Virus record (IMG/VR): IMGVR_UViG_3300045988_153208
From: a virus
DNA: 64,000 bases
Direction: 5' to 3' (one strand)
Position numbers and translations under genes: made by a program. Positions 9,994 through 64,000 of the stretch are shown here, in pieces (the stretch's first letter is position 1; each line of letters begins with the position of its first letter). The notes under the pieces were generated by a model, which was given only the letters and a program-made list of their open reading frames with translations, was not told where the DNA came from and ran no database searches.

Positions 9994-12900
9994 ATGCGAC
10001 CATATTTTGGCGTACACAACCATACTCACTATTCAAATCTGCGTTTATTAGATTCTATTAATAGACCAGAAGAGTTGATTAAAACAGCAGAAAAATTAGG
10101 ATTAAGTGGTATAGCAATTACTGACCACGAATGTTTATCTGCTCATATGGAAGTTAATCAATTTGCAAAAGATTTTTTAAAAGAGCACCCTGATTTTACT
10201 ATTGCATTAGGCAATGAAATTTATTTAACTGATACAAGAGATTGTGGTCAAAAGTATTACCATTTTATTCTATTAGCAAAAGATGAAATTGGATATAAAG
10301 CATTGAAAGAATTGAGTTCAATTGCTTGGATTAATTCTTATACTGATAGAAAAATGGAACGTGTGCCAACATTAAAATCTGAATTAAAAAATGTAATGGC
10401 ACAATATAAAGGACATGTTATCGCAACAACAGCTTGCATTGGTGGTGAATTAGGTTCTAATTTATATCCAATGTATGAAGCTGAAGTAGTAGGTGATATG
10501 CAAACTAAAAGCATTTATTATAATAATGTTGTTAAATTCATTGAATTTTGTATAAATGTTTTTGGTAAAGATGATTTTTATTTAGAGTGCGCTCCATCTA
10601 CTATGAAAGATCAACTTGTAGTAAATCAAAAGATTTATCAAGTAGCAAAAGCATATGATTTAAAAATGGTAATTGGAACCGATGCTCATTATTTAACAAA
10701 GAAAGATAGACCAATTCATAAAGCTTATTTAAATTCTAAAGATGGCGAGCGTGAAGTTGATTCATTCTATGAGTTTGCTTATGTAATGGATAGTGATGAA
10801 GTAGAAGAATTAATGTTACCATATATGGATACTTGGGATAAAAATAAAACTCCTCAAGAGATTATGAATTGGATTTTTGACAATACATTAGAAATTCAAA
10901 AGAAAATAAAATTTTATTCTCTGGAACGTAAACAACAAATTCCAAGAGTAGAAGTAATTGATTATAAAAAAGGATTCATTCCAGCAGATTGGCTTGAGAA
11001 ATATCCTGTTATTTGTTCACTGATTAATAGTGATGATATTCAAGAACGATATTGGGTGAATGAATGTATTAAAGCACTACAAGAAAAACAATTATATGAG
11101 AATGAAACATATATATCTCGGCTTGAAACTGAAGCTAATGTAATTAAAAATATTGGCGAAAAGCTTGAAGATTGTTTGTTTGCTTATTTTAATACATTTA
11201 AACATTATATTGATTTGTTCTGGGAATGCGGGAGTATTGTTGGCCCCGGTCGAGGCTCAGCAACTGGTTTCTTATCTAATTATTTACTGGGAATTACTCA
11301 GCTAGATCCAATTCGTTGGGGATTACCATATTGGCGTTTCTTGAACTTAGAGCGCGCAGAATTGCCTGATATTGATATCGATCTGGCCCCAAGCAAACGC
11401 CCGGCAATTTTTAGTGCTATCCGTAAAGAACGGGGAACATTAGGTTTAATTCAAGTTGCAACGTTTGGAACTGAAGGAACAAAGCAAGCAATTTTAACTG
11501 CTTGTCGTGGTTATAGAAGTGATGATTATCCCAATGGTATTGATGTAGATGAAGCTCAATTTATGTCTTCATTAATCCCGCAGGAACGTGGATTTTTATG
11601 GCCGATGAAAGATGTAGTAAATGGTAATCCTGATAAAGATAGAAAGCCAGTTACCACATTTATCCAAAAGGTAAACCAGTATCCTGGTCTATTGGATATT
11701 ATTGTATATATTGAAGGAATTGTTAATAAACGTTCTTCTCATGCTTCTGGTGTTATTTTATATGGTGAAGACCCATTTGAAACTGCATCATTTATGAAAA
11801 CTCCCAGTGGTGATTTAATTACTTGTTGGGACTTACATAAAGCTGAAGCAGCCGGAGATACTAAATATGACTTCCTGGTAACAGAAGCATGTGATAAAAT
11901 TATTCAATGTTATAATTTATTAAAAGAGGATAATCAAATTCCTGATATTGGTCTACGTGATTTTTATAATAAATATCTTCATCCAGAAGTAATAGATACG
12001 TCTGATAAACGTATTTGGGAACACTTGGCCGCAGGAGATATTCTTGACGTATTCCAATTCTCTACTGGTGTAGGTTTAGCTATTGCTAAAAAATTGAAAC
12101 CAAAAGATCCTATGGAAATGACCGCCGCGAACGCTATGATGCGTCTAATGAGTGAAAAAGGTAAAGAAAGTCAGCAAGATAGATATTATCGAATCCAAAA
12201 AGCTGGTATTCAAGTTTTTGATAAAGAAATGAAAGATAATCATTTGCCAGAAGAAATGATTGAAAAAATGCACAAGCATTGTGATAGATATTATGGATGT
12301 TGTCCACTTCAAGAGCAAATGATGGAAATCCTTATGGATGTCGCTGGATTTACATTAGGCGAAGCAAATAGTGCGCGTAAAGTTGTTGCTAAAAAACAAA
12401 TGGCAAAAATTCCTCAATTAAAAGAGCAAGTATTTAGTAAATTTACTAATGAACATAATGCTGAATATTTTTGGGAAAATGCAATCGCTCCTCAATTAGG
12501 ATATGCGTTTAGTTTAAATCACTCTCTTCCTTATTCATTTGTCGCAATTCAAATGATTTATTTAGCAATTAATTTCAATCCTATTTATTGGAATTGTGCT
12601 TGTTTAATTGTAAACAGTGGAGCATTGGAAAATGAACCAGAAGAAATAACTGATGAAGATTATGATTATTCTGGTGAAGAATATTGTGGTGCTTCTCCAG
12701 AAGATATAATGGAGAACAAATCAAAAAATAAAAAAGTGGCTAGCACTGATTATGGTAAAATCGCAAAAGCTATTGGAGATATACGGTCAGCTGGTATTAA
12801 AGTAAGTTTGGCTGATATTAATAAGGCTAAATTTGGATTTGCGCCTGATGTTGAAAATAATCAAATTTTATTTGGTTTAAAAGGATTGTTGAATGTTGGC

Positions 12901-13947
12901 GATGATTTGATTAATAATATTATTGCAAATCGTCCATATATATCAGTGAAAGATTTTTATTATCGCATTAAGCCAAGTAAGCAAGCAATGATTTCATTGA
13001 TTAAAAGCGGTGCATTTGATGAAATGATGGACCGTAAAGATTTAATGATTTGGTATATTTGGGAAACGTGTGATAAAAAATCTCGTTTAACATTACAAAA
13101 TTTAGCAACTCTAATTCGTTATAATTTATTACCAGAAGATAAAGATGAATATGTAATGGCAAGACGAGTTTATGAATTTAATAGATATTTAAAAGCTGTC
13201 TGTAAAGATGGTAATATCTATAAAGTTGATGAACGAGCGATTAATTTCTTAATTGAAATTGGTTGTGATGATTTAATTGGTAGTTGTTATTTATTAGATT
13301 CTAAGGCTTGGGATAAAGTATATCAAAAATATATGGATATATTCCGAACTTGGATTGCAGAAAATAAAGATGTTATTTTAAATCAATTAAATAATAAAAT
13401 ATTTAAAGAAGATTGGGATAAATATGCATCTAAATCTATTTCTGCATGGGAAATGGAAGTCTTATGTTTCTATTATCATGAGCATGAATTAGCCCATGTA
13501 AATAATAGTAAATATGGATTTGTTGATTTCTTCCATCTACCAGAAGAGCCTATTGTTGATAAAACATTTTCTAAAGGTAATAAAACAATTACTATGTATA
13601 AATTACATAAGATTTGTGGAACTTGTATTGCTAAAAATAAAACTAAATCTACAGTTACATTACTTACTACTTCTGGAGTTGTCGAGGTTAAATTTAGAAA
13701 AGAATATTTCTCATTATTTGATAAGCAGATTTCAGAAAAACAAATTGATGGTACTAAAAAAGTAATGGAAAAAAGTTGGTTTAATCGTGGCAATATGATT
13801 GCTGTTCAAGGCATTCGTCAAGGCGATAATTTTATAGCAAAAAAGTATGCTAGTTCTGGCGGTCACCAGTTATATAAAATTGATAAAATTTTAGATAATG
13901 GTGATATTGAATTAAAAGATGAAAGATACAATGGAGGAGCTAATTAA
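9994..13947 (+). CDS. dnaE: DNA polymerase III alpha subunit-like replicative polymerase (PHP domain N-terminus)
   Basis: 1317 aa with no TAG. The N-terminus has PHP motifs (GVHNHTHYSNL, ITDHE). It is long and carries conserved pol III alpha core segments. RBS GAAAGAGGTGG precedes the start. Confidence 0.8.
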   Translation: MRPYFGVHNHTHYSNLRLLDSINRPEELIKTAEKLGLSGIAITDHECLSAHMEVNQFAKDFLKEHPDFTIALGNEIYLTDTRDCGQKYYHFILLAKDEIGYKALKELSSIAWINSYTDRKMERVPTLKSELKNVMAQYKGHVIATTACIGGELGSNLYPMYEAEVVGDMQTKSIYYNNVVKFIEFCINVFGKDDFYLECAPSTMKDQLVVNQKIYQVAKAYDLKMVIGTDAHYLTKKDRPIHKAYLNSKDGEREVDSFYEFAYVMDSDEVEELMLPYMDTWDKNKTPQEIMNWIFDNTLEIQKKIKFYSLERKQQIPRVEVIDYKKGFIPADWLEKYPVICSLINSDDIQERYWVNECIKALQEKQLYENETYISRLETEANVIKNIGEKLEDCLFAYFNTFKHYIDLFWECGSIVGPGRGSATGFLSNYLLGITQLDPIRWGLPYWRFLNLERAELPDIDIDLAPSKRPAIFSAIRKERGTLGLIQVATFGTEGTKQAILTACRGYRSDDYPNGIDVDEAQFMSSLIPQERGFLWPMKDVVNGNPDKDRKPVTTFIQKVNQYPGLLDIIVYIEGIVNKRSSHASGVILYGEDPFETASFMKTPSGDLITCWDLHKAEAAGDTKYDFLVTEACDKIIQCYNLLKEDNQIPDIGLRDFYNKYLHPEVIDTSDKRIWEHLAAGDILDVFQFSTGVGLAIAKKLKPKDPMEMTAANAMMRLMSEKGKESQQDRYYRIQKAGIQVFDKEMKDNHLPEEMIEKMHKHCDRYYGCCPLQEQMMEILMDVAGFTLGEANSARKVVAKKQMAKIPQLKEQVFSKFTNEHNAEYFWENAIAPQLGYAFSLNHSLPYSFVAIQMIYLAINFNPIYWNCACLIVNSGALENEPEEITDEDYDYSGEEYCGASPEDIMENKSKNKKVASTDYGKIAKAIGDIRSAGIKVSLADINKAKFGFAPDVENNQILFGLKGLLNVGDDLINNIIANRPYISVKDFYYRIKPSKQAMISLIKSGAFDEMMDRKDLMIWYIWETCDKKSRLTLQNLATLIRYNLLPEDKDEYVMARRVYEFNRYLKAVCKDGNIYKVDERAINFLIEIGCDDLIGSCYLLDSKAWDKVYQKYMDIFRTWIAENKDVILNQLNNKIFKEDWDKYASKSISAWEMEVLCFYYHEHELAHVNNSKYGFVDFFHLPEEPIVDKTFSKGNKTITMYKLHKICGTCIAKNKTKSTVTLLTTSGVVEVKFRKEYFSLFDKQISEKQIDGTKKVMEKSWFNRGNMIAVQGIRQGDNFIAKKYASSGGHQLYKIDKILDNGDIELKDERYNGGAN

Positions 13948-14543
13948 TGTATAATATATTAGCATTAATTGGTGAAGCGGGGAGTGGTAAGGATACCATT
14001 CTCCGTAAACTAATTGATGATACAAAACATTATTATAATGGTAAATTACCACTACATGAAATTATAAGTTATACTTCAAGACCTCCAAGAGAAAAAGAAG
14101 TGGATGGTATTAACTACCATTTTATCTCAGCAGAAAAATTTGCTGAAATGATTTTATAGAATCAAATGTTTGAAGCTACTGTTTTTAATGAATGGTGCTA
14201 TGGCACAGGAATTGAGTCAGTCAAAGAAGGCGCTATCAATGTAGGAGTATTTAATCCAGAAGGTGCAGAGATTTTATTACATGACAAACGAGTAAATTTA
14301 ATTATCGTTTATATTCATGCAGATGATAAAATTCGATTAATTAGATAGTTAAATCGAGAAGCTAACCCAGATATTGATGAAATTATTCGTCGATATAAAA
14401 CAGATAAACTCGATTTTGAAGATGCTGATGATTTATGTAATTGGTTATATACAAATAATACTCCCGCGGAATTAGAATATATATATAAAGATTTAGCATT
14501 ATTCCTGTCTCGGTGGCCGGAGCATCTGGACACAACTTATTAA
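13947..14543 (+). CDS. Deoxynucleoside monophosphate kinase (P-loop kinase)
   Basis: P-loop GEAGSGKDT. The frame continues through TAG 14157 and TAG 14346 to TAA 14541-14543. Its ATG overlaps the polymerase TAA. Confidence 0.55.
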
Positions 14544-14562
14544 TTTATTTACAACAAACACT

Positions 14563-14615: not shown

Positions 14616-16886
14616 ATGTTTTATATAATTAAACGTAATGGCGATGTAATGCCATTTAACAAACAAAAAATTATTGATGCTATTACTAAAGCATTTATTG
14701 CTGTAGATAAAAATATTTTTGAATCAGATAGTATTAATAGCATCGCTGATGAAGTAGAATATAGAGCGAGTCATTTTCCCGATGGAAGTGTTAATGTTGA
14801 AGACATCCAAAATTGGATTGAAGAAGCATTAATGGCATCAGAGCGTCCTGATATTGCTCGTGCTTATATTCGCTACAGATATAAAAAAGAAGTCGCTCGC
14901 ACTCATTCAACTGAATTTATTGCAGCAATTGGTGAAAAAATTCGTGGAGCTAATATTCAGAATCAAAATGCTAATGTTGATGAAGCATCATTTGGTGGGC
15001 GTATGGGTGAAGCCAATAGTCTCTTAATGAAGCAATACGCTCTTGATTATATTGTATCTCCTCGCACAAAACGTAATCATGAAGAGAATATGATTTATAC
15101 TCACGACCTTGACCATTATGCTGTGGGTGATCATAACTGTTTATCAATTCCATTTGATGATTTACTTGCTAATGGATTTAATACTCGTCAAACAGATGTG
15201 CGTCCAGCCGGTTCAGTAAATACAGCATTCCAATTAGTTGCAGTTATTTTCCAATTACAATCTCTTCAACAGTTTGGTGGAGTGAGTGCTACTCATCTTG
15301 ATTGGACTATGGTTCCTTATGTTAAAAAGAGTTTTAGAAAACATTTTAAAGCATATTTAACTGATGTTGATGATTATAGTGAAGGTATGGCTTTACAAAT
15401 TATAAGTGATTGTGAGCCTATTGAAATTTCTAATAAAGAATTGCAAAGTCAATTTGGTCATCAAAATGCCTATAATTATGCTCTGAAACAGACAGAAAAA
15501 GAAATCCATCAAGCAGTTGAAGGTATGTATCATAATTTAAATACTCTTCAAAGTCGTAGTGGTAATCAACTTCCATTTACTTCTATTAACTATGGAACTT
15601 GTACTCTTCCAGAAGGAAGAATGATTACAAAAGCCCTATTGGAAGTGTCTCTTGAAGGATTGGGTAAATTACATAAAACTTCTATTTTCCCTTGTGGGAT
15701 TTTCCAATGTATGAAGGGTGTCAATAGAGAACCAGGTGACCCGAATTATGATTTATTTAAACTCGCGTTAAAATCTACTGCTAAAAGATTATATCCTAAT
15801 TATGCGAATGTTGATTGGTCTGGAAATGCTGGTTATGATATTAATGACCCACGGACCTATTTTAGCACAATGGGATGCCGAACCGCTAATGGATATGATA
15901 TTAACGGTTTAGGTCAATTAAAAGATGGCCGTGGAAATATTTGTCCAGTAACCATTATTATGCCTACATTAGCTATGATAGCAAAAACTAAGGTAAATAA
16001 TCTTCTTGTTTTTAAAGTATTAGATGAAGATAGCGAAGTAAAAATTAATGAATATATAAGAACATTTATGGATTTACTTGATGAAAAAATCCATGAAGCA
16101 AAAGATCAATTAATTGAGCGTTTTGATTGGATTTGTTCTCAAAGCCCGGCTTCAGCTAAATTCATGTATGAAAATAATTTGATGGCAGGCTATATTCCAG
16201 AAGAAGGGATTAGAAGCGCGCTTAAACATGGAACACTGGCTCTAGGTCAGTTAGGACTAGCAGAAACTCTACAAATTCTTATTGGCATTGACCACACTAC
16301 TCCAGAGGGGATGGAATTAGCAAAAAAAATTGAATCCTTATTTAAACAGCGTTGTGCGGAATTTAAGGAGCAATATAAATTAAATTTCGGTGTTTATTAT
16401 ACTCCTGCGGAAAATCTCTGTTATACTGCAATGAAGAAATTTAAGGCTAAGTATGGCGAAATTCCTAATGTAAGTGATAAAGAATTTTTTACTAATTCAA
16501 TTCATGTCCCTGTATGGAAAGAAATGAGCCCATTTGACAAAATTGATATTGAGAGTCAATTGACTGGATATAGTAATGCCGGTTGTATTACTTATGTTGA
16601 GTTAGATTCTACAGTATCTAATAATTTAACTGCTCTTGAACAAATTGTAAATTATGCTATGGATAAAGATATCCCTTATTTTGCTGTAAATGTTCCTAAT
16701 GACACTTGTCTCAAGTGTGGATATACTGGTGAATTCAATGATAAATGTCCAGAATGTGGCAGCAAAGAAATCCAGCAGCTTCGTCGTGTGACTGGTTATT
16801 TAACTGGTAATTATAAAACTGCATTTAATTTAGGAAAGCAAGATGAAGTTGAACATCGAGTCAAACATGTAGGAGTGATGGAATGA
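14616..16886 (+). CDS. nrdD: Anaerobic ribonucleoside-triphosphate reductase (class III RNR)
   Basis: 756 aa with no TAG. It has an N-terminal ATP-cone-like region, a C-terminal Cys cluster CLKCGYTGEFNDKCPECG and the glycyl-radical motif RRVTGYL. Confidence 0.85.
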   Translation: MFYIIKRNGDVMPFNKQKIIDAITKAFIAVDKNIFESDSINSIADEVEYRASHFPDGSVNVEDIQNWIEEALMASERPDIARAYIRYRYKKEVARTHSTEFIAAIGEKIRGANIQNQNANVDEASFGGRMGEANSLLMKQYALDYIVSPRTKRNHEENMIYTHDLDHYAVGDHNCLSIPFDDLLANGFNTRQTDVRPAGSVNTAFQLVAVIFQLQSLQQFGGVSATHLDWTMVPYVKKSFRKHFKAYLTDVDDYSEGMALQIISDCEPIEISNKELQSQFGHQNAYNYALKQTEKEIHQAVEGMYHNLNTLQSRSGNQLPFTSINYGTCTLPEGRMITKALLEVSLEGLGKLHKTSIFPCGIFQCMKGVNREPGDPNYDLFKLALKSTAKRLYPNYANVDWSGNAGYDINDPRTYFSTMGCRTANGYDINGLGQLKDGRGNICPVTIIMPTLAMIAKTKVNNLLVFKVLDEDSEVKINEYIRTFMDLLDEKIHEAKDQLIERFDWICSQSPASAKFMYENNLMAGYIPEEGIRSALKHGTLALGQLGLAETLQILIGIDHTTPEGMELAKKIESLFKQRCAEFKEQYKLNFGVYYTPAENLCYTAMKKFKAKYGEIPNVSDKEFFTNSIHVPVWKEMSPFDKIDIESQLTGYSNAGCITYVELDSTVSNNLTALEQIVNYAMDKDIPYFAVNVPNDTCLKCGYTGEFNDKCPECGSKEIQQLRRVTGYLTGNYKTAFNLGKQDEVEHRVKHVGVME

Positions 16887-18225: not shown

Positions 18226-18477
18226 TGGAATACCTAGTAAGTACAACTGAAGTATATAGAGTTGATGATGAAGCCAGTGCCACTTCTCTAATTGAGAAGG
18301 CTAAGCATGACAGTATGTATGAATTGGCTAAGTATAGTTCTGTAAAAAAGGAAAAGAAATAGAAGGGTGAGATTATTGATGAATGGTATCAAGTATCCTT
18401 GACTAAAAAATTCAATGATGAAAAAGACCCTATCTCTGTTGTTAATATTAAATATGGGGAGCAAATTGATTTCTAAT
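18226..18477 (+). CDS. Hypothetical protein (83 aa)
   Basis: ATG immediately follows the TAA of the upstream gene. The frame has one in-frame TAG and ends at TAA 18475-77, overlapping the dut ATG. Confidence 0.4.
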
Positions 18478-19033
18478 GATTAAGTTTGAAAGAGTTTCTA
18501 AATACCCTGATGCAGTAATTCCCACTCGTAGTACAGTGAATTCCGCAGGATACGATTTTACTGTAGCTGAAGATATTGTAATTCCATCTTATTCTAACCA
18601 AATGAGTGAAATGGTTCGATGGGGTAGAACAGGCCATACTTATGCTCTAACTGAAATGGCTAGTTTTACTAAAGAATTAAAAATAAAACCCACTCTTATT
18701 CCTACTGGAATTAAATGTTGTCTTGATGCTGATACATATCTTGAATTATCAGTACGTAGTTCTACTCCATTAAAGCATTGGATTATTCTTGCTAATGGAG
18801 TGGGTATTATTGATGCTGATTATTATAATAATCCCGATAATGAAGGACATATTTATTTTCAAGTAATTAATCTTACTCCATTTGATATTCAACTTAAAAA
18901 GGGAGATAAAATTGGCCAAGGTATTATTAAACCTTATCTAACAACAGATGATGATAATGCTTTTGGTCAACGGCTTGGTGGGTTTGGTTCTACTACAAGT
19001 AGTCCAGAAGCCAATCAAGCTAGTCTAACTTAA
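18476..19033 (+). CDS. dut: dUTP diphosphatase
   Basis: dUTPase motifs AGYDF and GVGIIDADYYNN, and a C-terminal Gly-rich motif RLGGFGSTT. Confidence 0.7.
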   Translation: MIKFERVSKYPDAVIPTRSTVNSAGYDFTVAEDIVIPSYSNQMSEMVRWGRTGHTYALTEMASFTKELKIKPTLIPTGIKCCLDADTYLELSVRSSTPLKHWIILANGVGIIDADYYNNPDNEGHIYFQVINLTPFDIQLKKGDKIGQGIIKPYLTTDDDNAFGQRLGGFGSTTSSPEANQASLT

Positions 19034-20115: not shown

Positions 20116-20120
20116 AAAAT

Positions 20121-20153
20121 AGCCGAGAATTAAATAAAACTTAATTCTCAGCT
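20121..20153. terminator. Bidirectional terminator between convergent genes
   Basis: Hairpin gagaattaa/ttaattctc flanked by A and T runs. It sits between + gene 19621-20115 and - gene 20163-20703. Confidence 0.6.
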
Positions 20154-20162
20154 TATAATAAT

Positions 20163-21112: not shown

Positions 21113-21169
21113 TCGTATGAACTCCTTTCTTAGTTAGAATAGAGGGAGGATATTTCCTCCCTCAATAAA

Positions 21170-21469: not shown

Positions 21470-21484
21470 ATTTTTTACAGCGGA

Positions 21485-44500: not shown

Positions 44501-45204
44501 ACTTTTTCATATTCATCATTATCATCAGGAGCGTCTACTATAGCTTCAAATTTAGGAGCTTTAGAATCTAAACTCGCAACCATAATATACTTTTCAGTAA
44601 TTGTAGTATTATTACTAACTGAACACCAAATTTTTTGCCATACAGTATGGTCATAATTAGCTTGATAATGTTTTTTATCTATTTCTTTATTTATAGAATA
44701 TTCACAATTTTCATCAATTCCATCAGGTGTTAAATTATTTAATGGGTCTTGAGTAATACTATCTTTTAATAAATAATATCTCTAATTGGAATCATAAAAA
44801 TCAGTTTTAGGGTCTACTTTAAAATAGTCTCCATAAGGACGCTATGAAGTAAGTTTTGGGTCCATATCACCAATAGTCTAAATACTACCTTGAATTTTAT
44901 AAACCCACAACACTGGACAATTAGCCGTAAATTTTTCAACTTCTTTGCCCTTTTCGTCATTAGCAGTTTGATGCCACTAAGCTTTTATTTCTGTTGATAT
45001 ATAAGGACTATATCGACGTTCGCCATAATTAATAAATACATAACGAGTGTTATACACTCCATCGCCATTAATATTCCCAGTAGAGGAGCCATCTGGAGCG
45101 CGTTTAGCTATGGCTTGTTCCATTTCATAACGATTGGTATAAGTTTTATCAAATGTTAAAGCAATTCGTGGATTAACTTTTAAATTACCATAAAATGAAC
45201 TCAA
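41578..45204 (-). CDS. Large tail or baseplate structural protein (about 1208 aa)
   Basis: Track ORFs 44977-45204, 43651-44466 and 41986-42738 are in one frame. Stretches were spot-checked for TAG-only interruptions. The true stop is TAA 41578-80. The start is a probable TTG directly after the upstream TAA, with RBS GGAGGGG. Confidence 0.5.
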
Positions 45205-45546
45205 TTAACTCCCCTCCTTTTCGTATAAAATATCTATTAATAAATAAGCATCTTGATTTTCATCTATATTAGTTAATGACATTTCATCAAAATTAATAGA
45301 TGTTACTACACCAGAGCCCTAAGTCATATCTAATTCATACAAACCAACTCCACCAATCATTATATAGTCTTGATTGGCATTAAGTCTAAATTTAGTACCT
45401 GGTAAACTTTGGATTCCTAATTTTATAATAGGAGTATAATCATCAAAAATTACTCCTGACATTAATTTAGCTTTAGTTATTGTTACTGGATAATTTTTTT
45501 CATTTAATTCACCAAAATATCGAAACTAAACAACACTTTTAGCCAT
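45205..45546 (-). CDS. Small structural or assembly protein (113 aa)
   Basis: RBS AGAGGAGACGGAG precedes ATG 45544-46. The frame has two in-frame TAGs and ends at TAA 45205-07. Confidence 0.45.
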
Positions 45547-45562
45547 TACTCCGTCTCCTCTC

Positions 45563-51300: not shown

Positions 51301-54300
51301 ATTTAAAATTTCATTAATAATATTGCGATCCTGCCAATTAATTATTCTCTCTAAACGAGATTGATGATCATTTAAATCTTCATAAGGAATATTATTTGAT
51401 TCTGATAAACCATTTAATAAAGTATTATAACTGCGAGTTAAAGTTAAATATTTCTAAAAATTATTATCAGCTTCTGCTATTAATTCATAATTACGATATA
51501 AAGCTCTTAAAAATTCTGATTGCTATATATAATTATCTTTCGCGCGTCTTGTTTCACTATCATTTACTTCAGTATAATAATCTAAAATCTCTAACTAAAA
51601 TGTTGCTTCCGCGATTAATCCTGTGCCAATTTTAATTATATCAGGAGATTTTAAATTAGAAAAATATCTATTATCATCATACTCTAACTCTACAGAATTA
51701 TTAAAACGAATATAAAAATCTTTAATCTAATCTTGCTATACAATTGATTTAGCAATATTATTTTCATCTACAGTCCAATCAGTATGATAAAATTCAGGGA
51801 CTGGATTATAGTCTTCTTTATTCAACCAACGAATAGCTGTTGATAAATAATCTTTTTCATGAATTAATTCATTATTATTTTTTATAGTTTTATAGAATGT
51901 AGCATTTTTTAATAAATCTTCTAAAGATTTTATCTAAGCGTCATAAAAATCATTAATAGCTTTATGATCAAACATAATAGCAGTTTGTAATTTTTTTTCT
52001 CTTAAATCATTTAATGCTTTAATTTGATTATTAATATAATCTTGATATTTATCTGTAGCCCCTTTAGGAATAATATAAACATCCTTAACTAATTTATATT
52101 TTCCATCTTTTTCAACATACAACTCTAATTCATCATTTAAATATGTCTTTTTATTTTTAATTAAAACATAATATAATCCAACTTCTTCGTCATATTGAAT
52201 GTCATGTAATTTTTCATAACGATATTTTTCATTGATATAAAATGAAGTGTCAAAATCGTCAATCACTGATTTCCAATAACAGTCATAATATTGACCGGTC
52301 TTTACTCCAAAAATATTAGTACGCTATGTTGGCATCCAAGAATCAAATTGAGGGAAATACTCGTACATCTAAAATACACAAAATTCATCATTTACATTAA
52401 AATATTCTTTTACTTTTGGAGTTAATTCATCTATTGGATAGGGCTATCCAAAAGGAGAAACAGAATATAATAAATACTGACTACCAAAATTTTCTTCATA
52501 ATCATATTTAGAATAACTACCATCTGCTTGAGGTAGACACACATGCGTTGCTTTCCCATCACTAATAGCCCAAGGCACTCCAGATGGATTAGCCGCAGTT
52601 ATTTTTGCCCATCCTTCAGGAGTTACATATTCATAAGGGACCGCATAAATAGGTATTAATTCACGTACTTTTATATGTAATTGTTCTAAATTTAAAACTT
52701 TTAATTTGTCTCTGGTGTAATTATGGAATTGAGTATTAATATAAGACATAATGTTGCCAGGCTCAAATCCTTTGGCAGCTAAAGTATCATAAATTTTTTC
52801 AAATGCAGAATTTACATCTAATTTATTTAATACAATTCTCTCATTTAAAGAACTCAAAGCATTTCTAAATTTATTAATATCTGACTCAGTTAAAGACTAA
52901 TCTTTCTATTTAGTAACTAAAGTATCTAATTCAGTTAATACTGGATTAACTCCCACAAACTAATGGCTTAAAATCGTCTTTAATTTTACTTCAGTAATTG
53001 CATCAAAATTTCCGTATCGTACTCCTTGATATTGGCACTCTAAAATACCTACTGGATGAGTGTATTCATCATTAGGTATTCTAATACGACTTATTTTTCG
53101 GCTTGAATTATTATAAGTATATGAGCCAGTAATTCCAATTAAAATTTCATCTTCTGTCTTTTCTGATATATCTCCGTAAGTTAAGAAAATACTAGATCCA
53201 GGCAATAAATCTTGAACAGAAAATTGACTAATATTATTAGATTCAAAATCTATAATAATATCCATGCCAGGCTCATATTCATTTAAATAATAACTGCGCC
53301 ATAATGAAACATATTTACTAACAATATCAGATTTTATAAATCCGTATTTTAATAAATTTTCATAAGTTAAATCCGCTATTTCAACACATTGTCCGGTAAA
53401 AGAATGAAGCATGCGCCCTAGTGTATCTACTGGAGACATAGAAACATTCATAATACGAATGATAAAATTCCCTTCTGGCCCAGACCGGAATAATTTAGGC
53501 TATCCATTATTTAACCAATCTAAGACTTCCATTTTAAAATTGCGCTCTTTATGAATATTATTTTCAATTAAATCACAAGGATTTTCTAATATTTTTTCCA
53601 TGCGATTAAAAAATTCTGTACTGTTTTTAATATCAGCATGGTCAGTACAAGTTCTAATATAGTCTTGAATTTCTCTATCATAAAATAAAATTTCATCATC
53701 CATTTGGTAAGAAATTAATCCACTAATAGGAAATTCTTTATAAGCAACTTTTCCATTTCTGAAAATAAAGGGAAATTTATTGCCAATTGTATTTGTTTTT
53801 TGTTCGAGTATTGTAGTTTTAAATGAAGATACTTTAGGATTGAATTTTACTTTTAAAACTCTATCTCCATCATATAAAAAGATATCTTCAAAATCAACTG
53901 AAACAGGTTCACTTTCAATGCGAGAAGAATAAATACCAAACAAATTATATTGAATTATACCATAAATATATTTAACACCTTGTTTAACGGTATAATCATT
54001 ATAATCTATTAATGATGGTTTCATATTTTCAAGTTTAAATCGTTTTAATTCTAACCAAGAACGATATTCATCTTCTTCGCTGGCCCTCACTAAAATGTAT
54101 TGACCAAAATAAGTATCTTCTTGTTTATCTACTTGGTATTCAATATTAGAATCATATCCTAAAATATGTAAATATTCTTTAGCTAATTCAGTAGATAAAC
54201 CAGCTGTAGTAATAATATTTTGACATAAGTTAATTAAACTCTAATCTGTAACAATCTGGTCTAACTCTGTTTCATCAACATTTATAGAATCCTATAAATA

Positions 54301-55638
54301 ATTTAAATAAGAATTTACTCTATTCTATAAAATAATATTTAAATTTTTATATCCTTCAAATGAAGTAGCAATATATACTGTAGTATTCCATAAAAATTTA
54401 CTAAATAAATTATAATAATTTATTTCTTCTTTTTCTTTACCAATATTTTCTATAACAGAACCTAAATATTCTCCTAAATATAAATCAAATTCTTTTGATT
54501 CCATAATTAAAGACTCTAAAATACCAGTAGAAATACCACACATATCATTTAATAATGAAACATTATCTCGTAAATATATTCTATACTTTTCTAAAATATT
54601 GACAACAAATCCTGACTCCTAAATTCGATCAACCCATTCTTTAATTTGCGGGTTATCTGAACTATTTGTTCCTTGATAGAATCGTTTTAATTTTGTCATT
54701 AAATTTTTAGAATAATTATAATAAGTATTAATACGAGTCATTTCCTTAATAACATTTTCTTGACGAACTACTCGTTCAATACCATGAAAATTAACATTAA
54801 TACATCCACTATTTGGATGAGGTTCTGTTGTGATTGAAATACTTTTACTAGGGGCTAATAAAGTTTCTGCTGTTACTCTATACATTGGGCTTGATGCCAC
54901 ATATCCATTTAAAGTTGTAACAGTATAAACTAATTTATAAACTTCACTAGTTTTAATGAAACTACTTAAAACGACTGAATCAGTAGATATTCCATATTCA
55001 ATATCATTAGAATTATTATGTAATAATTCACCAGTAGTATAATATAATTCCCCTTCTTCTGTATAAAATGAAAAATTATAAGAATATACTTTTTCACTCT
55101 AATCAAAATCAGAAGATAATTCATACAAACCGAATAAATTATTATTAAATAAATTAATACTATCAATTGAATATCCTTTAACTGAAATTTTAGGCTCCTG
55201 AATACATTTAATAATACCAATAGTAGAATAGTATCCTGTTAACTTTTTAATAACATCAACTGTAATAGTTTCTTTCGTGTCAGGGTCTTCTTTTGTTTCA
55301 GTCTATGTATATTGTGAAATATAAGCTAATTGTACTTTGTAATACTAACCTTCATTTAATAAAGCTCCCTAAGAAGGAGGTATAGTAAATGTAACAGTAG
55401 AATTAGCAGTATTAAAATCCATTGATTCAATTGGATTAAATAAATAAGTATTTGTTGAAGCAGTTTTTAATCGCAAAACAAATCCAACAAATTCTTTATC
55501 ATTAACTGCGGCACTCGCAGTAAAAGGAATTGTAATCTAAATATCCTTTAATACTTTCGTGTCGCCTGTTTCAATATAACTCTTACAAAAAGCAGGTAAA
55601 GTACCTGCTATTACAGGAGGATATAATCTTTCAGGCAT
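48370..55638 (-). CDS. Giant tail-associated or baseplate hub-like protein (about 2422 aa), Tal-like by position
   Basis: RBS AAAGGAGAATG precedes ATG 55636-38. Track ORFs 54619-54900, 54325-54543, 53500-54090, 52960-53451, 52444-52857, 51934-52266, 50473-50679, 49327-49557 and 48640-48939 are all in frame. The regions 54901-55638 and 48370-48640 were scanned completely and 51121-51934 almost completely; only TAG interruptions were found. The first TAA/TGA is TGA 48370-72. Confidence 0.55.
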
Positions 55639-55664
55639 AGTCATTCTCCTTTACCACATAATTA

Positions 55665-58565
55665 TTATTTATTTTCTAATGCTTGGATACGTTTTACTAA
55701 ATTTGGAATCGTTGTTTGCTATAATGTAGTGAAACTTGTTTCCAAAGTTTTAACGCGTGATTCTAATGCAGCACATCTATCAATTAAAGTTTTAATAGCA
55801 GAATTTGAAGATAGATTGCATTGGACAGGGACTCCATTTAAAAAATATACTGGATTTTCAGAACTTCCAACATTTAATAAAGCTTCATGCTCAGCATCCA
55901 CCAAATTCTAAGCATTCTAAGCTGAAGTCGCAGTTTTTATCCAAGCTTCTCCCTAATCATTTATTTTAAATATATTCTTTTTATCATCAAAAGCGTATAA
56001 ACCATATTCTTCTAAATTATTATTATTTTTAAATGTACCCATTAGTACACCTTTAGTCTAATTACTATTTAATTGTCCTACTGTAGTAGAAATTAATTGT
56101 AAAGTTTCGTCATTAAAATCAATAACTGCCCCTTGTAAATCATTCCACATTGCAATAGGATAATTATTTTTAATCACTACAATAGGCTATATCCATACTA
56201 TTTTGTCTGTTTTATTCTATGCCTATACATAGAGACAAGTTGAATTATTATCTTGAGAGGAAAATACAGTAGGCGGAATAATTATATTATTTTCAAATTT
56301 CCACTATGTTAAAATTTTGTTCTCATCATTTTTAATATTATTCTGCAAGCTCCAATTTAAATTTTCAGATACAGTTTCAAACCCATCCATTTCAGTTGTA
56401 TATTTAAAAATTTGATAATTAGTTTTTTCATATACCGGTTTTTTACCAGTAATATCATAAGTTATTATAGAGCATCCATCAGCACAAACATATTCTGGAT
56501 TAAATGTAGTAGGAATACTAATATATCCCTCTAAATTATTATTATTATAAGTTCCTTTTACTTTAACGACTAATTTTGATAAAAGATTAATATCAGATTC
56601 TGTTAATGCTTCATGAATTTTAATAATATTATCCACTAATGAAATCTTATCAGAATTTAAAGAATTATAATACCATTCATAAGTTAATTCAATATCAGAA
56701 CGTCCTTGCCAAGTATAATCATATAAATTAGCAACTATTCGATACTCCTTATCTTGAGAAATAGGACAAATAACTTTACAATCTTTATACTAATCTTTAA
56801 TTTTTTCTTGTAATGATAATTGAAGCACACAATTAGCCCCAGAAGAGCCGCTATTACCAAATAATAATTCAATTGAACTGGTGTATATCTAATTATTAAT
56901 TTCAATTTCACATTTAATTGTATTATTTCTAAAAAGTGGATTATATAAAGAGTTAATTCTAAAAGGTATATAATATATTTTAGTTGTAGGATTTAAATAG
57001 TCATACATAGGAGCAGTATTTTTATCAGTATTTAATATATGCTCAAACTCATACTCATCATGCTTATTTATCTTTCCATTTTCCACTGGAATAATCATTG
57101 TTTTTTTAGAAGGTAGCATATATCGTAATCGAACACCGTTTGTCAATGTTGTAGTCTTACTAGTATCTTTGCTATTAAATTCTACCGCAATATAATGGAT
57201 TTTTTCTCCATCAGAACGAGCTAATAATTGGTTATCTTGTCCATATATATAAAATGTATTATTGTTATTATTCGTAAATAAATTTAAACCAGCTAATAAA
57301 CCAATATCTGGATTATATAATGTATTTGTATAAGAACATGACTAAGAATATCCTAAAACTTCTCTTGTTCCTATTTTACCTTTAAAATAAATCCTATATG
57401 ATTGAGTAAAAATCTAATCTCCTAAACGAAGAGAGGTAGAAATTGTATTACCCGCAAGAATAGGAATCTCATCATAGCTGCCATCTGCTCTTACACCTAA
57501 GCGCCACCAACCTTGACCAAATACCGAACTGTTTTCAGTTACATCTTTATCATAAGAATATAACCATATTTCTGCCCCAGTAAATGTAGCCAAAGTCCCC
57601 GAAGTCATATCTATAACTCTAAACCCCATTGCAACCTTACGCTTTTCTTCATCTTGAGAGGGAGTGAACTAATATCTATTGCTACCTCTTGGATATAAAT
57701 AAACGCCAATATTACTATCAGTTGTAATATCTGAAAAATTACTTTTATAATATCCTAAATATAAATTTATATTTTTAAAAACAATTGAAAAAGAATCTGA
57801 ACTATCAATTTTATTATTATCACTATCGTAAAAATTGCCATTTTCCCATAATTCAATTTGGATATCATTAATAATTAAATTAGTAACATCTATATCAAAA
57901 TATTGAGAAGTATAACCTCCTGTTTTATATGCACTTAAAAATAACATATCTTTATTAGAGGATATTGTTGTGATCTGTCGAGTAAATGTTTTTAATTCTT
58001 TTGTGGTCTAATCTTTTCCACTTAATATAATACGGATACCATAAGTACCTTTATTTAAAGTTTTTGTACCATTATATAAATCAGCCATTAAATTATAAGA
58101 AATACGTAAAGTTGTATATCCTACTAATTCATTATTATTTATATAACTTTGAGGGCCCATAATAGTTTTACTAGATTCTCGGCCTTCAGAACTAGGAATT
58201 AACACAATTTCTTTATTTTGATTAAAAAGCTAATTGGCTGCATAAAAAGTTTTAGAATCATCTTTACCAATTACTTCATAATCACTAATTACGCGTCCAG
58301 TAATTAATTTTTTACCAGAAAAATTACCTTGTGGAATTAATACATAAACTTCTTCATTAAGAGCATAAGATTTATCTTTTTCATTAACAAAAACTGTTAA
58401 TTTAGCTCCTTTATAATTTACAATATATTTCTATGCCCCCTCAGAACTTTCAGGGACACTTTCTATTATTCCAACTATTGTCTAATCAAAAGGTAAATTC
58501 TATAATCGAGCAGATACAATTGTGTCTACTGATCGGAATATTTTTTCATTTAATTCATTAGACAT
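55665..58565 (-). CDS. Large tail protein immediately after the tape measure (about 966 aa), Dit-like by position
   Basis: RBS AAAAGGAGAG precedes ATG 58563-65. Track ORFs 58008-58205, 57669-57947, 57414-57629, 56889-57146, 56304-56636 and 55719-55904 are all in one frame joined by TAGs. The gene ends at TAA 55665-67. Confidence 0.5.
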
Positions 58566-58645
58566 AATTCGCTCTCCTTTTTCTCATATTCTAATAAATT
58601 TTGAGAAAAAATCTTATTTTATTATTTATATTTGACCAATAAAAA

Positions 58646-58673
58646 AATGGCGAGGTAATTAAACCTCGCCATT
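58646..58673 (-). terminator. Intrinsic terminator or attenuator between the tape measure and downstream tail genes
   Basis: Stem aatggcgaggt/acctcgccatt with loop aatta, followed on the minus strand by a T7 run, immediately after the TMP TAA. Confidence 0.6.
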
Positions 58674-58677
58674 TAAA

Positions 58678-61600
58678 TTAAACAGTCTTTCGACTTGCAT
58701 ATTGACTTGCTTCATTCTCCATCATTTCAAATGCTTCCATAATTTCATTACTATCAGTCACATTCGGGAAATCAGCATTAATAGAAACTTGCTGCATAAA
58801 TTCTTGTGCAATTCTATCAACCCCAAGAGAAGAAGGAATAAGATTAGATAAATAACTCACAATAGTCTAAACATTTAGCCCTATATTTTGTAATATAGTA
58901 GAAATATCTAAACTATCCATTAAAGCAGTATCAATGTTTAATTCATTATTACTCATCCAATCTTCAATTTGTTTATTCATATCTAATTGATCTAACATAT
59001 CTAAATAAGAGAATTGAGAAATATAATCTGGCACTTCAACTGTTTTATTAAAACTCTCAGAATTGTGCTAAGTACTAATTATATTATTTGCTGTTGCAGT
59101 TGAACGAGAATCAATGGCATTTTCATATTTACCATAATCAATACTATTCATTCCAGATAAAGCCGCCATCATTTCATTCATAGTTTTTACTAAAGCTTCA
59201 TTCCGCTTAATCGCACTATCAATTTTAAAAACATAAATAGATTCCCAATCACTCGCTGCTTTAATAACACCATTAAATGATTCTGTGGCATTTTTAACAA
59301 TTTTTTCCATATCTGCTACAGCTTTATCTGATTCACCAGTAATTTTAATCGACCATCCAGAAGCTGCATCAGCAAAACTTCCTTCAATACCTGCTGTACT
59401 ATTAATTTCTTTAATTTTATTTAAATAATCATCAAGTAATTTATTAGAATCAGCAACATAATTATCATGGCTTTTCCAAAATGCGTTAAACATTTCATCT
59501 AATGTAGAATATCCTGTTTTTAATGCCAAAGTAGTCTGATCAAAACTATCAACTAATGCGCCAGAACTATCTTTATAATATGCTACAAATTTTTCATTAG
59601 CATCTTTACTATTTTTAAATACTTCTTCATATTGCTAATGAATCTATTGCATACGTTCATCATAATATTTTTCTAAATCAGCAGCCTATTTCTCGTATTC
59701 AGCTTGAGAAATTTCTCCTTGAGTAAATGATAGCTTTATCGCTGTTAACTTTTCTTGATAGTCAGATTGTAATTGAAGAATATTATTTTCTAATGTTTTT
59801 AAATATTCTTCATTAGCTTTTTGATAAGCATTTAATTTATCTTCATATTCTTGTTCAGCTTCAGCTATTTTATCTTCATTAGCACTATATACATATCCCC
59901 AATTACCATTATTATCACGGGTTAAACGAACAGTTTCATTAGAATTTTGAACATCTTCCAATTTCTATCTTGCTAACTCTAATTCATATTTAGATTGTAA
60001 AATCTTTAAATCATATTCACTAATTTTAGAACCATCTTTTAATTTTTTATTTAACTCATCTTGTAATTTATTTAATGCTTGTTTATGAGGAATAATATTA
60101 GTATCATCAATAGAACCTTCAATCTGACGTCTTAATTTATTTAATTCATAAGTTTTATCAGCATCACTTAAATACTAATCATTTAATTCATTGGCCCTAG
60201 TAATAGCATCTTGCAAAGCTTCAATAGAACCATAAATTGGAGATATACCGTCTTCAAATTCTTTGACAATATTATCCATTTCTTCTTCAAAGATATCGCG
60301 TGCTCTTTCTAAAGCTTCTTGCCAAGTATCTAAGAAATTTTCTTCAGCACTATGGACTTGCTCATCGATTTCTTTTAAACTATCACTCCATTGTTTAATC
60401 CCAATTGAATCTCCATTGGCAACAGCTTTATCATATTGCTCTTGAGCATTAGCACGCATTTGTTTTAATGTCTCTACTTGCTATTTAGCTCCGGCAAGAT
60501 TATTAATACTATTGTTCATTAATGAACGATTTAAATTACGCAATACTAGTTTTGATTGCTCATTTAATTGAGCCCCTAATAATGAAGTAATATCTTTAAC
60601 ACCTTCAAGAATATTTTGATAATGTTCAAATAAATCAATTTGGTCTTGAACATCCTCACTAAATTGATTAAAACTATCAAGGACTTTTTCTTGAATGGTC
60701 GCTCTCATTTCAAGTAATTCTTGATTAGCTTCTAAAATACTAGAACGCCATTCTCGAATTTGATCAATTTCATCTTCAGTGAAATTCTTAGCTTTTAAAT
60801 CATCAACTGTTAATTTGTCAAGCTCTTCAATAGAATTAATACCATGATTATTCAATAATTCCAGCAAACCATCAGAATAAGTTTTAGTTTTTTCTAAGGC
60901 ATTTTCTGCTTTTTCACCAATTAAAGCAATAGCCTCAGCCGCAGAATAAGCATCATCTTCAATTTTACTTAATAAATAATCAAGATATTCCAATTCATCA
61001 TCTTTAACAGCAATTTTAATTTCAATTTTATACTAAGTCTTTTCAAAAATTACATCAGCTAATTCAGTTTGTAAATCATATAATTTTTCCAATTCATCTT
61101 GGCGCAGATTATTAGTTTCTTCATACTATTCTAAAGCTTCAATAAAATCATCATAAGCTTCTTCAGCTGCATTATCAGCATCTTCATTTTTACCAATAGA
61201 TGAATTGTATTTATCAATCTGGCGCTTCATAATTTCATCATAATTAGTAATAACACCAGTTTCATCAAATTCAGCACCATAAGATGCAATTAAAGCTTTA
61301 TCTTCATCCCAATATTTATTAATTTCATCAAGATATTGATTCTATAAATCAATCATTTCATCATATTTCTCAATTTCTTGATCCATTAATTCTAATTTAG
61401 AAGTACCAAATGCTCGCTCTTTAGCTTTTGCTAAATGCTCCATTACTTCTTCTAAATCTTCAATTTTTTGCTTAATTACATGATAACGCTCAATTTCATC
61501 TTTATATTCTTTTGGAGGAGGAGGAGTATATGAACTTCCACCACCACCATTTCCACCTCCGCCATTATTGTTAGTGGCAGTGGGATTAGTAGTTAAATCA

Positions 61601-64000
61601 GTTGTTTTCCCACCATACTCTTTACCCGACCAATCAAGAGTTTTAACTGTTGGCACATTAACCATAGTCGTAGTATCAATAGGAACAACAGATGGAGGAT
61701 CTAAATGATGTCCATGTTCATCAATATTACTAGTATAAACAACTGCTTCTTCGTGTGAAGTAACAGGAGTTGGTTCACTTTCAATTTCTGCATCAAATCC
61801 CATACTAGCAACAAAAGCTTGAGCTTGTTCTGCAGTAAAACCAAAGGCTGAAATCAATGTATTTAAAGAAGCAATTGCTTCAGTTGTATCAAATTTTGGA
61901 TCAAGCTATAATCCATTCGCAGCCTCTTGTATCTAAGTAAAACAAGTATTAATTTCTAACTAAACGCTACTTAAAGAATCTCCAAAAGCTGCTTTTAAAT
62001 CATCTCTACCACTATTAGCTATATTTTGTAAAACTTGATTTACCTATTCCCCAGTTGTATAAAATGAACGCTAAGTTGCAATATTTAATTCCGCTAATGC
62101 TTTTTGGTTACCTTTTGCTACATCGGGCATTAATTTAGCAACTTTACGAGCATATCTTTTATCTTCTTTGTATAATTTTTCAAATGTATCTTTAGATACT
62201 CCAGCTAAATCTGATAAAGCATCAGAATTCTATGCAACAAATTCATCAAAAGCTGCTTCATTTTCTGCATTATATTTTTTAGTAAGACTGGTAGAGTCAT
62301 TCATCCAATCTGAAAATGCTTTTACTTTATCATTACATTTATCCCAAGAACCAGCTAATTCATCAACTAGTTCTTGTCCATGAGTGCCTAATGAGCCCAT
62401 TTCATCTCGTAATTCATTAATCGCTCCAGAATCACCTTCAACAGCCTGTTGTAATTTTCCAAAATTCTCTGTTAAATTATTAGCATCTCCAGCCCAAGCC
62501 TTAAAATCATCTTCAGACATACCGAATATATCAGCGAATGATTCAGAATTACTCGTCAAAAATTCTTGTAATTTTCCAATTTCAGAGGGTAAAGCACTAC
62601 CCTATCCCATATTTTCTAAAGCAGAAGCTTGTTCCTAAATTTTATCTTCATCAAAATTCTATTCATCCCAAGAAGGCTTTAATCGGCTAGCAGCATCAAA
62701 AGCTTTTTGGCTATAAATTTGCTCATCAAAATAATTATCTTGCTAACTCAATCCCCATTGACGAGACTACTCTGCCGCGAAATTCTTCAATATAGTATCA
62801 TAATCAAAAGTAACTTCAGAATTTTCAACAGTTCCGCCATTTTCATCAGTCAATTTTACTGGTATTGTTGTATTACCGCTAGTAAAATCTTGTAACCAAT
62901 TATCTCCTAATTCACTTACTGAATATCCTTGCTATGATAATAGATTTAAAATTTCAGATTCAGTTAATTCATTACCACTATTACTACCACGCGATGCAAT
63001 TATTTTATTTTCATAATCTATAACATCTTGACTAATTAATTCTCCAATACCATTTCGATATTTTTCATCATATCCTGATAAATCTAGTCCTCGTGAAAGT
63101 AATTCATTTAAAACATCATTCTAATAAGAATCAGCTAATCTACTTGTTTCAGCAGTCAATTTTTCTAATGCTTCTCTAGTTTCGTGATTTGAAGTAATTA
63201 ATTTAGCTGTATTTTCATCTAAACCTGCTTTATTTATTAAGTCTTCTTTACTAAAATCAAAACTAGAATCTTTCATAGCAGCTTTAACTACTTTATTTAT
63301 TTCTGATGTTGTTAATGTGTCAGTCGCATTAACAGTATGATAACGATATTCATTAGGTCTAAACTGATATTTTTCTCGCTTTGTTCCTACAACTATGTTT
63401 TCATTTTTCTTTGAAATTTCTCTAGTTTTTGCTTCCAGCTATAACTATTCATCTCTATTGTTCTAAGAATTAACAGCTGTTTGAGCTTTATTCTATTTAT
63501 CAAGAGCCTGCTATTTAATCTTATTCCAACCAGATTCAGTTAAATGCTAAATATTATTAACATCATAATACCAGTCTTCACCTTTTTTAAGTTGAGAATC
63601 AGCATCTGCCATTTTATTATAATTATCAATTAAATCTTGAACTTCATTATTTACATCATATAAAGCTTCTCGCCATTCAGTAGTGCCATATTTTAAATCT
63701 TTAAAAGCATCATATTTACTTGATAAACCATCTAGAGATGAAGTTACTTTCTATACTTCAGAATTAACATTATCTAAATTACTTTGTAGTATTTGTAAAT
63801 CTTCATTAGATTGTTTAAGTTCAGTATTAAAAGATTGAGAACGTTTAACTAATGTATAAATAGCAAATCCAACAGCCGCAATTATTGCAGCAATTAATAT
63901 AAATTTAGCAATTAACGGTAATAAACTTACCTGAACCCCTTTTAAAGCGATATTTAATTCTTGAGTCGCTGCAGTTAATCCTTTAGTTGCTAAAGTATTA
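58678..64000 (-). CDS. Tail tape measure protein, C-terminal about 1770 aa (the 5' end lies beyond the window)
   Basis: Track ORFs 62230-62559, 61342-61857, 60481-60993, 60175-60459, 59686-59961, 59068-59529 and 58678-58860 are all in frame. The gaps 59962-60174 and 60460-60480 were checked and contain TAG only. The sequence is highly alpha-helical, coiled-coil and Glu/Lys/Ala-rich with a Gly-rich GGGGNGGGG stretch. It ends at TAA 58678-80. Confidence 0.7.

Follow-up and report, generated by a model that had tools for sequence, protein, structure and literature searches.

TAG densities in a gut phage that reads TAG as glutamine are gene-specific and only partly fit a temporal code switch

In a siphovirus-like gut phage with a genome of ~186 kb, in which TAG encodes glutamine, in-frame TAG codons fall into three density tiers and not onto an early-to-late slope, and the per-gene densities are conserved among relatives and, within the replication as well as the structural module, spread ~100-fold. 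The DNA analysed is a 64-kb stretch from IMG/VR record IMGVR_UViG_3300045988_153208 (hereafter the window; 30% GC), which its exact primase sequence places at positions 96,292-160,291 of the 186,118-bp ENA metagenome contig k119_14822 (ERZ27261223). It contains, at 1-22.4 kb of the plus strand, a module for replication and nucleotide metabolism, recognized by Pfam, and a convergent minus-strand tail module at 22.5-64 kb with fibre-like genes, giant genes, a tail protein and the tape measure's C-terminal portion, recognized by PHROGs; PHROG and Pfam gave few matches for most tail genes of the window. A first-pass annotation of the window had described a rise of TAG from early to late genes and read recoding as a temporal switch, with core replication proteins made under the standard code and structural proteins completed only once suppression is active. 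We hold, with moderate confidence, that TAG accumulates gene by gene as an ordinary glutamine codon, opposed by selection for translatability, and does not act as a binary early/late gate.

When genes are delimited with TAA and TGA as the sole stops and the first ATG as the start, the window divides as follows (Gln, glutamine):

1-22.4 kb, plus strand: replication module; 25 TAG in 6,292 codons, 4.0 per 1000, 11% of Gln codons
22531..41466, minus strand: low-TAG fibre block, including a 2720-codon giant gene; 35 TAG in 6,028 codons, 5.8 per 1000, 20% of Gln codons (the count takes in plus-strand gene 25844-26614)
41578..63999, minus strand: TAG-dense block with tail or baseplate genes and a tape measure represented by its C-terminal 1,773 codons; 131 TAG in 7,393 codons, 17.7 per 1000, 39% of Gln codons

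The dense block, whose matches are to a PHROG tail protein and the tape measure, differs from each of the other tiers (P=1e-10 to 1e-15). The replication module and the fibre block do not differ (Fisher P=0.16 per codon; P=0.02 per Gln codon). TAG use is heterogeneous among the genes overall (P<5e-5) and within the replication module (P ~5e-5, Monte Carlo G-test), so that a uniform density is not what the window holds, and each late block is homogeneous in itself (fibre block P=0.23, dense block P=0.98). The gradient of the first-pass annotation is thus borne out as strong non-uniformity; as an early/late contrast it breaks down at the fibre genes, which are no denser per codon than the replication module. 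Its picture of a tail module saturated with TAG every few tens of codons likewise describes the dense block (one per 56 codons) and not the fibre block, and the 1050-codon fibre (22531-25683), credited with at least nine TAGs, has eight, or one per 131 codons. It was right that the minus-strand tail module needs TAG read-through. CAG is nearly gone in the dense genes, in which TAG makes up ~40% of Gln codons, and the overall GC is 0.25-0.30 in the dense block vs 0.31-0.35 in the fibre block. The first TAG lies within 50 codons of the start in every dense-block gene (within 83 codons of the window edge in the truncated tape measure). A clustering of TAG towards the 5' end, as a gate signal, was not found along the late genes, where TAG positions are uniform (Kolmogorov-Smirnov P=0.76).

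TAG is a glutamine codon in this phage. Reading through it enlarges the coverage by open reading frames (ORFs) from 42 kb under the standard code to 67 kb, and frames free of TAA and TGA reach 2,730 codons in DNA of 25-31% GC. TAG positions fall within the Pfam domains DnaB_C, DHH, AAA_30, Guanylate_kin and Fer4_12, and PHROG domains extend across TAG positions as well. Relatives for comparison came from IMG/VR, where ~50 have polymerase identities of 41-99% (contigs up to ~197 kb, the longer ones mostly 160-197 kb); 40-50 recoded and ~30 standard-code relatives were fetched. Over ~550 aligned sites (tblastn, code 15), the partners of window TAGs are Gln in 168 cases, Asp in 60, Lys in 56 and TAG in 47, and Gln is again the commonest partner (171 sites) when the relatives' TAGs are aligned to the window. 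Window TAGs stand at conserved Gln sites in DnaB (codon 397), RecJ (168), the dNMP kinase (134) and the helicase (68), and several TAG sites are invariant Gln in relatives. Among the late genes, 99 of ~108 TAGs are kept in conspecific strains, the differing sites being almost all exchanges between TAG and CAG, and the gene calls in the public record of the source contig already read through TAG. In the face of all this, the notion of TAG as a true stop, with long read-through ORFs that join up short genes or pseudogenes by chance, is virtually untenable, even with the absence of a suppressor tRNA from the window in its favour.

Some side observations concern the sequence around TAG. The base 3' of TAG is A in 44% of the 195 in-frame TAGs of the window vs 32-35% after other G-ending codons (P=0.001-0.04), an excess that is only modest once these codons serve as the control, and the base just 5' of the same TAGs is rarely G or C. 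An A after TAG and few G or C before it are the classical context preference of amber suppression. In the minus-strand gene 41578-45123 (1181 codons), one TAG stands at codon 1206 of a 1209-codon reading frame, two codons before TAA; instead of encoding an amino acid, this near-terminal TAG could serve as a leaky or dual terminator.

The TAG counts of the first-pass annotation for the replication module were reproduced, both for the genes without TAG and for DnaB (one) and the accessory genes (one to five each):

1098..2630, plus strand: DnaB-like helicase; one TAG, codon 397 (2286-2288), inside Pfam DnaB_C
2685..3389, plus strand: endonuclease-like gene, with the highest density of the module (21 per 1000; 5 TAG in 234 codons)
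3565..4668, plus strand: primase (Toprim domain); no TAG in 367 codons
5207..6952, plus strand: RecJ-like exonuclease (Pfam DHH, RecJ_OB); 5 TAG in 581 codons
7006..7836, plus strand: lipoprotein with a Phage_lysozyme2 domain; no TAG in 276 codons
8133..9329, plus strand: SF1 (PIF1/RecD-like) helicase; 3 TAG, two of them inside the AAA_30 domain
9994..13947, plus strand: DnaE-type DNA polymerase III alpha; no TAG in 1317 codons, Gln encoded by 39 CAA and 6 CAG
13947..14543, plus strand: dNMP (guanylate-type) kinase; 2 TAG, both inside the Pfam domain
14616..16886, plus strand: NrdD; no TAG in 756 codons
16883..17377, plus strand: NrdG activase; one TAG, codon 34, within the Cys-cluster motif
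18476..19033, plus strand: dUTPase; no TAG in 185 codons
19033..19542, plus strand: RuvC-like gene; no TAG in 169 codons

The replication machinery as a whole is not translatable in the standard code: suppression is needed for DnaB, RecJ, the SF1 helicase, the dNMP kinase and NrdG, the last being the activase on which the TAG-free NrdD depends. In spirit, this is what the annotation itself had named as speaking against a switch, early genes with TAG that are required before any suppressor is available. DnaB codon 397 is CAG in 20 relatives and CAA in three, and CAG also stands there in conspecific contigs, of which five have no TAG in DnaB, so that its TAG is probably a recent change from CAG. 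In RecJ, 15 relatives have the TAG of codon 70 as well and 12 that of codon 336. Helicase codon 68 is CAA in 19 relatives, codon 134 of the dNMP kinase is CAA or CAG in 34, and NrdG codon 34 is CAT, CAA or CAG.

The first-pass annotation had also proposed to check whether the TAG-free set is statistically distinct. With the window alone, significance for a single gene is reached only by the polymerase (45 Gln codons, no TAG; leave-one-out P=9e-4) and by NrdD (P=0.01); the primase, dUTPase, RuvC-like gene and lipoprotein are too short for this (P=0.06-0.36) and, on the window data, may be TAG-free merely through their shortness or few Gln codons. That the TAG-free genes are merely short or Gln-poor was rejected for the polymerase and NrdD.

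The recoded relatives, dereplicated by TAG pattern for the replication genes, separate these cases. The polymerase has 10 TAG in 46,110 aligned codons (0.2 per 1000; none in 29 of 36 relatives), the primase five in 10,242 codons (0.5 per 1000; TAG-free in 24 of 28) and the lipoprotein none in 5,642 aligned codons of 21 relatives. Family densities per 1000 then climb through DnaB (2.3), NrdD (2.6), the helicase (4.4), the dNMP kinase (5.6), NrdG (6.3) and RecJ (10.1) to the RuvC-like gene (15.2) and the endonuclease (18.2). NrdG carries at least one TAG in 31 of 33 recoded relatives, NrdD ranges from 0 to 9 TAG, and the RuvC-like gene has 3-7; the dUTPase is mostly TAG-free. Judged from these alignments, TAG avoidance is conserved for the polymerase, primase and lipoprotein, and not for NrdD or the RuvC-like gene. 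The polymerase and the primase show no general codon adaptation (GC at third codon positions 0.17).

The late module continues beyond the window in two conspecific contigs (L057 and L061), which complete the tape measure and add connectors, head genes, portal and TerL. The full tape measure has 61 TAG in 2,790 codons (L057). Four of these late genes are TAG-free or nearly so: the major capsid protein (MCP, 368 aa), p310, p195 and a putative tail tube (358 aa). The 368-aa protein is called MCP because it is homologous (50% identical) to ORF25 of phage Phass-1 (OQ749652; Phassvirus group), which its authors annotated as the major capsid protein and listed without TAG (Babkin et al. 2023, PMC10607447); p310 and p195 are its neighbours. 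The 358-aa protein is putatively the major tail tube, considering its match to a PHROG "virion structural protein", its place two genes upstream of the tape measure and its codon bias. Neither candidate had a PHROG or Pfam annotation beyond this match of the tube, and sequence searches of the PDB gave no meaningful match. Over 50 recoded loci in 20 identity tiers, TAG use in late genes is as follows:

MCP: 11 TAG in 632 Gln codons, 1.7% of Gln, 0.7 per 1000
Putative tail tube: 4 TAG in 317 Gln codons, 1.3% of Gln, 0.4 per 1000
p310: 5 TAG in 588 Gln codons, 0.9% of Gln, 0.3 per 1000
TerL: 362 TAG in 1,021 Gln codons, 35% of Gln, 13.3 per 1000
Portal: 335 TAG in 1,062 Gln codons, 32% of Gln, 14.5 per 1000
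p384: TAG is 41% of Gln codons
p242: TAG is 57% of Gln codons, 37.7 per 1000

MCP lies below TerL in 19 of the 20 identity tiers (P=4e-5). That structural genes carry TAG, as the first-pass annotation held, is therefore true of the tape measure, tail genes, TerL and portal and untrue of MCP, the putative tube, p310 and p195, and with conserved TAG-free genes present in the late module, absence of TAG cannot be equated with early. The codons of the TAG-free late genes are distinctive: AAG is 79% of Lys, GAG 46% of Glu and CAG 68% of CAA plus CAG, vs 10-21%, 13-18% and 6-13%, respectively, elsewhere in the genome. We infer that these genes use host-like codons.

The same codon set recurs in a region outside the window. 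In conspecific contigs, a stretch of at least 17 kb with 42-52% GC diverges from the late module and was located at:

L164, 1-8000
L189, 3000-20366
L196, 1-12000 and 15000-20342

It contains at least 28 perfect TTGACA-17-TATAAT promoters, mostly with the TG extension, together with terminators and small ORFs with strong Shine-Dalgarno sequences. Because of its promoter density and orientation, it is presumed to be an immediate-early or host-takeover region. A terminal repeat is suggested by several assemblies that stop within it. Its 26 scored ORFs (those with ribosome-binding sites, delimited in the standard code and kept only if ending in TAA or TGA) have no in-frame TAG in 2,514 codons, against 23 out of frame, and share with the capsid genes their G/C-ending codons (AAG 55% here and 79% in the TAG-free late genes, CAG 69% and 68%). 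The window gave no perfect match to the sigma-70 consensus promoter, and for this reason its replication genes are better called middle genes.

A suppressor tRNA(CUA) was found by neither ARAGORN nor Rfam, whether in the window or along conspecific contigs that cover ~138 kb (about -26 to +112 kb, counted from where the window starts), with ~48 kb of the source genome outside this coverage; ARAGORN detected the tRNAs of Phass-1 as a positive control. The position and promoter of the suppressor, to which the first-pass annotation had pointed as a check, could thus be read in relatives and not in the phage itself:

L212, 1016-1090: tRNA(CUA)
L216, 6534-6624: tRNA(CUA)
L217, 6627-6717: tRNA(CUA)
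Phass-1 (L139), 12442-12610: two copies of tRNA(CUA), immediately upstream of NrdD

In the three relatives, whose neighbouring proteins are ~60% identical, tRNA(CUA) lies ~3 kb upstream of a conserved DUF2828 gene in an early-strand block, among tRNAs for A-ending codons. In two of them it is directly preceded by a sigma-70-like, host-type promoter (TTGATT or TTGACA, 17-nt spacer, TG-extended -10); in the third it comes after a further tRNA-like sequence, apparently within a cluster. Two kinds of tRNA(CUA) are common to the family and Phass-1. The 75-nt kind resembles tRNA-Gln (U1/C72 unpaired, G2-C71, G3-C70, G73). In the 91-nt kind, G73 goes with a long variable arm; from such a class II shape one would usually expect Ser identity, but Ser is seldom the residue to which TAG aligns. 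The same early-strand block holds tRNA-repair-like genes, among them a PNK-like kinase, a metallophosphatase and an RNA ligase of 472 aa (L198 2722-6612, which in conspecific contigs is ~16-26 kb upstream of the window, and L208 17793-18620), and relatives also carry Thg1. The RNA ligase and an SPFH/flotillin-like gene are TAG-free with a strong preference for CAG. No RF2 or Gln-tRNA synthetase domain was found by Pfam on the scanned window proteins or in the gene calls of the flanking loci; both are optional, and few recoded genomes carry either (Borges et al., bioRxiv 10.1101/2021.08.26.457843).

In the explanation we prefer, a ratchet of mutation would be checked by selection. TAG would arise from CAG by a C-to-T change under strong AT mutation pressure, and would accumulate because further decay to TAA would kill the gene. 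The level reached would depend on the gene and be conserved: practically nil in the presumed immediate-early region, in the replisome core (polymerase and primase) and in the virion proteins expected to be most abundant (MCP, the putative tube and neighbours), intermediate in accessory replication genes and fibres, and ~40% of Gln codons in the tape measure, baseplate, terminase and portal. Gene-specific purifying selection may be strongest where translation must work with the suppressor absent or limiting; it would combine timing with required output, and TAG density would measure its strength for each gene. Suppression probably starts early and then ramps up: the early-strand block is where the three relatives have their tRNA(CUA), two of them with a host-type promoter before it. 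Timing plausibly plays a part for the immediate-early genes and also for the polymerase and primase, the latter two because they lack general codon adaptation.

In favour of this explanation, a crude mutational expectation (from Leu TTR/CTR and from Glu and Lys third positions) puts TAG at 0.4-0.7 of Gln codons, of the same order as the 0.39 of the dense block. Several points weigh against it. The neutral-equilibrium estimate is rough, and it is above the observed value in every gene class. Output-driven selection fails for the polymerase and primase, again because of their lack of general codon adaptation, and only timing or another specific constraint explains why they avoid TAG. Expression levels are assumed from function and codon bias, and the position and promoter of the phage's own tRNA(CUA) would be those of relatives only by extrapolation across ~60% identity in neighbouring proteins. 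The relatives are phylogenetically non-independent, so that family-level counts overstate the sample size. A tail tube gene is preferentially recoded in the crAss-like phages of Borges et al., opposite to the situation here.

Tentatively, recoding could also be no timing device at all. TAG would then be a mildly costly synonymous Gln codon that accumulates by the AT-driven ratchet from CAG, under two codon regimes: a host-like, TAG-free set for immediate-early genes and the most abundant virion proteins, and an AT-rich, TAG-tolerant set relying on phage tRNAs that are made from host-type promoters since the start of infection. If it is true, the TAG density of a gene reports translational selection and not the phase of infection.

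A pure temporal code switch, in which TAG-free genes are those needed before suppression and genes with TAG are blocked in translation until the suppressor accumulates, thereby enforcing late expression, is in our judgement unlikely. It has been published for several other recoded phage clades (Borges et al.), and it would account for the presumed immediate-early ORFs without in-frame TAG, for the conserved avoidance in a polymerase and primase that are otherwise not codon-adapted, and for the early first TAG of every dense-block gene. A clean gate is contradicted, however, by TAG in essential replication genes, by fibres that are late but TAG-poor, by MCP, the putative tube, p310 and p195, which are late yet conserved as TAG-free, and by the early-block suppressor of relatives, which in two of three cases has a consensus-like promoter. 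Moreover, TAG is spread uniformly along late genes, and the TAG-free state of NrdD and the RuvC-like gene is not conserved. What stands of the proposed switch is that the replisome core avoids TAG and that the presumed immediate-early ORFs lack it.

It is improbable that history alone is responsible, such that the TAG-poor genes (polymerase, NrdD, fibres, capsid) were recently recombined from standard-code relatives and have had less time to gain TAG. The family does hold both standard-code members, of which there are many and in which TAG terminates genes, and members with TAG as Gln. NrdD has no TAG in the window and five in contigs whose polymerase is 98% identical, which suggests allele exchange, and the higher GC of the fibre block than of the dense block would fit as well. 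Nevertheless, the avoidance in the polymerase, primase, lipoprotein, MCP and tube recurs across at least 20 identity tiers, so that repeated recent acquisition of the same genes is unlikely; the polymerase has the AT-rich codon usage of the rest of the phage; and the polymerase and NrdD retain CAG at 13-22% of their Gln codons, none of which has turned into TAG.

Some further observations concern the family and neighbouring genes. The family is abundant, with thousands of homologues in public assemblies, and near-identical DNA was not found in INPHARED by megablast of 25 kb. Relatives lack in-frame TAG at ~30 of 81 head-module loci and at 4 of 52 polymerase loci (L012, L036, L038, L065, L068, L077 and others); where checked, their GC is slightly higher (31-38%) and TAG is a real terminator in most. 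Recoding was therefore gained or lost inside the family. Free-standing endonuclease-like genes are among the most TAG-dense (17-21 per 1000), one on the plus strand between DnaB and primase (2685-3389) and another between TerL and portal (L061 3579-3950), echoing the heavily recoded homing endonuclease of Borges et al.; the former is homologous to Phass-1 ORF18, an "endonuclease" listed as TAG-containing. Small genes occupy the junction of the two modules (19621-22479), two of which encode membrane proteins (19621-20115 with three TAG, 21691-22104 with none). Lysis functions could be among them; no endolysin, holin or lysis cassette could be assigned within the window.

Stop-codon recoding in gut phages is widely explained as delaying late and lytic proteins, and the present family offers a natural comparison set. 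That early genes are translatable in the standard code before a code switch was already proposed by Borges et al. (bioRxiv 10.1101/2021.08.26.457843), and the idea is only partly supported here. Capsid and putative tube proteins that are as TAG-free as the polymerase are a poor fit to a pure timing gate and point to translational cost as a co-determinant, and the gene sets given above are concrete enough for ribosome-profiling or proteomic tests of the switch model. Like the phage here, the code-15 gut phages of Borges et al. read TAG as Gln, have a low GC and have close relatives in the standard code; TAG as a terminator in standard-code members, seen in the family here, was described by that study for other clades; their structural genes are heavily recoded, and the use of the alternative code in the replication machinery varies, as it does here. 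Two differences stand out. MCP and the putative tail tube are conserved as TAG-free here, whereas a tail tube family was preferentially recoded in the crAss-like set there, and the "code change module" of their Jade phages lies upstream of the lysis cassette, whereas the tRNA of the relatives here lies in an early-strand block.

Phass-1 is another counterpart, with homologues of polymerase III alpha (38.5% identity), NrdD (40%), MCP (50%), TerL (44%) and portal (39%). It also reads TAG as Gln, and both of its suppressor tRNA(CUA) types are nearly identical to those in relatives of the phage here. Its Data S1 (PMC10607447) lists MCP and neighbours, polymerase, helicase, primase and NrdD as TAG-free, and the tape measure, TerS, TerL, portal and RecJ as TAG-containing; Babkin et al. 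left this gene-specific avoidance without comment. On the other hand, Phass-1 has 136 kb with ~50% GC in the profiled third (100-136 kb of the record) and the phage here ~186 kb with 30% GC, the synteny differs, the two suppressor tRNAs of Phass-1 are directly upstream of NrdD, where the phage here has no tRNA, and the distinct GC-rich, promoter-dense region belongs to the phage here. Further counterparts are large standard-code siphoviruses of Firmicutes, the Enterococcus phages EF1, H1 and VRE9 and SPbeta (YorL), with ~39% identity in the polymerase and ~40% in homologues of MCP and tube. EF1 falls in the same monophyletic group as Phass-1 (PMC10607447), and no stop-codon recoding was found in it. 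The features of this EF1/Phass-like group are present here, namely a DnaE-type polymerase, homologues of MCP, TerL and portal, and a very long tape measure (2,790 codons in L057). The known picture of code-15 phages is unchanged by these comparisons, and what they add is a qualification of the switch model.

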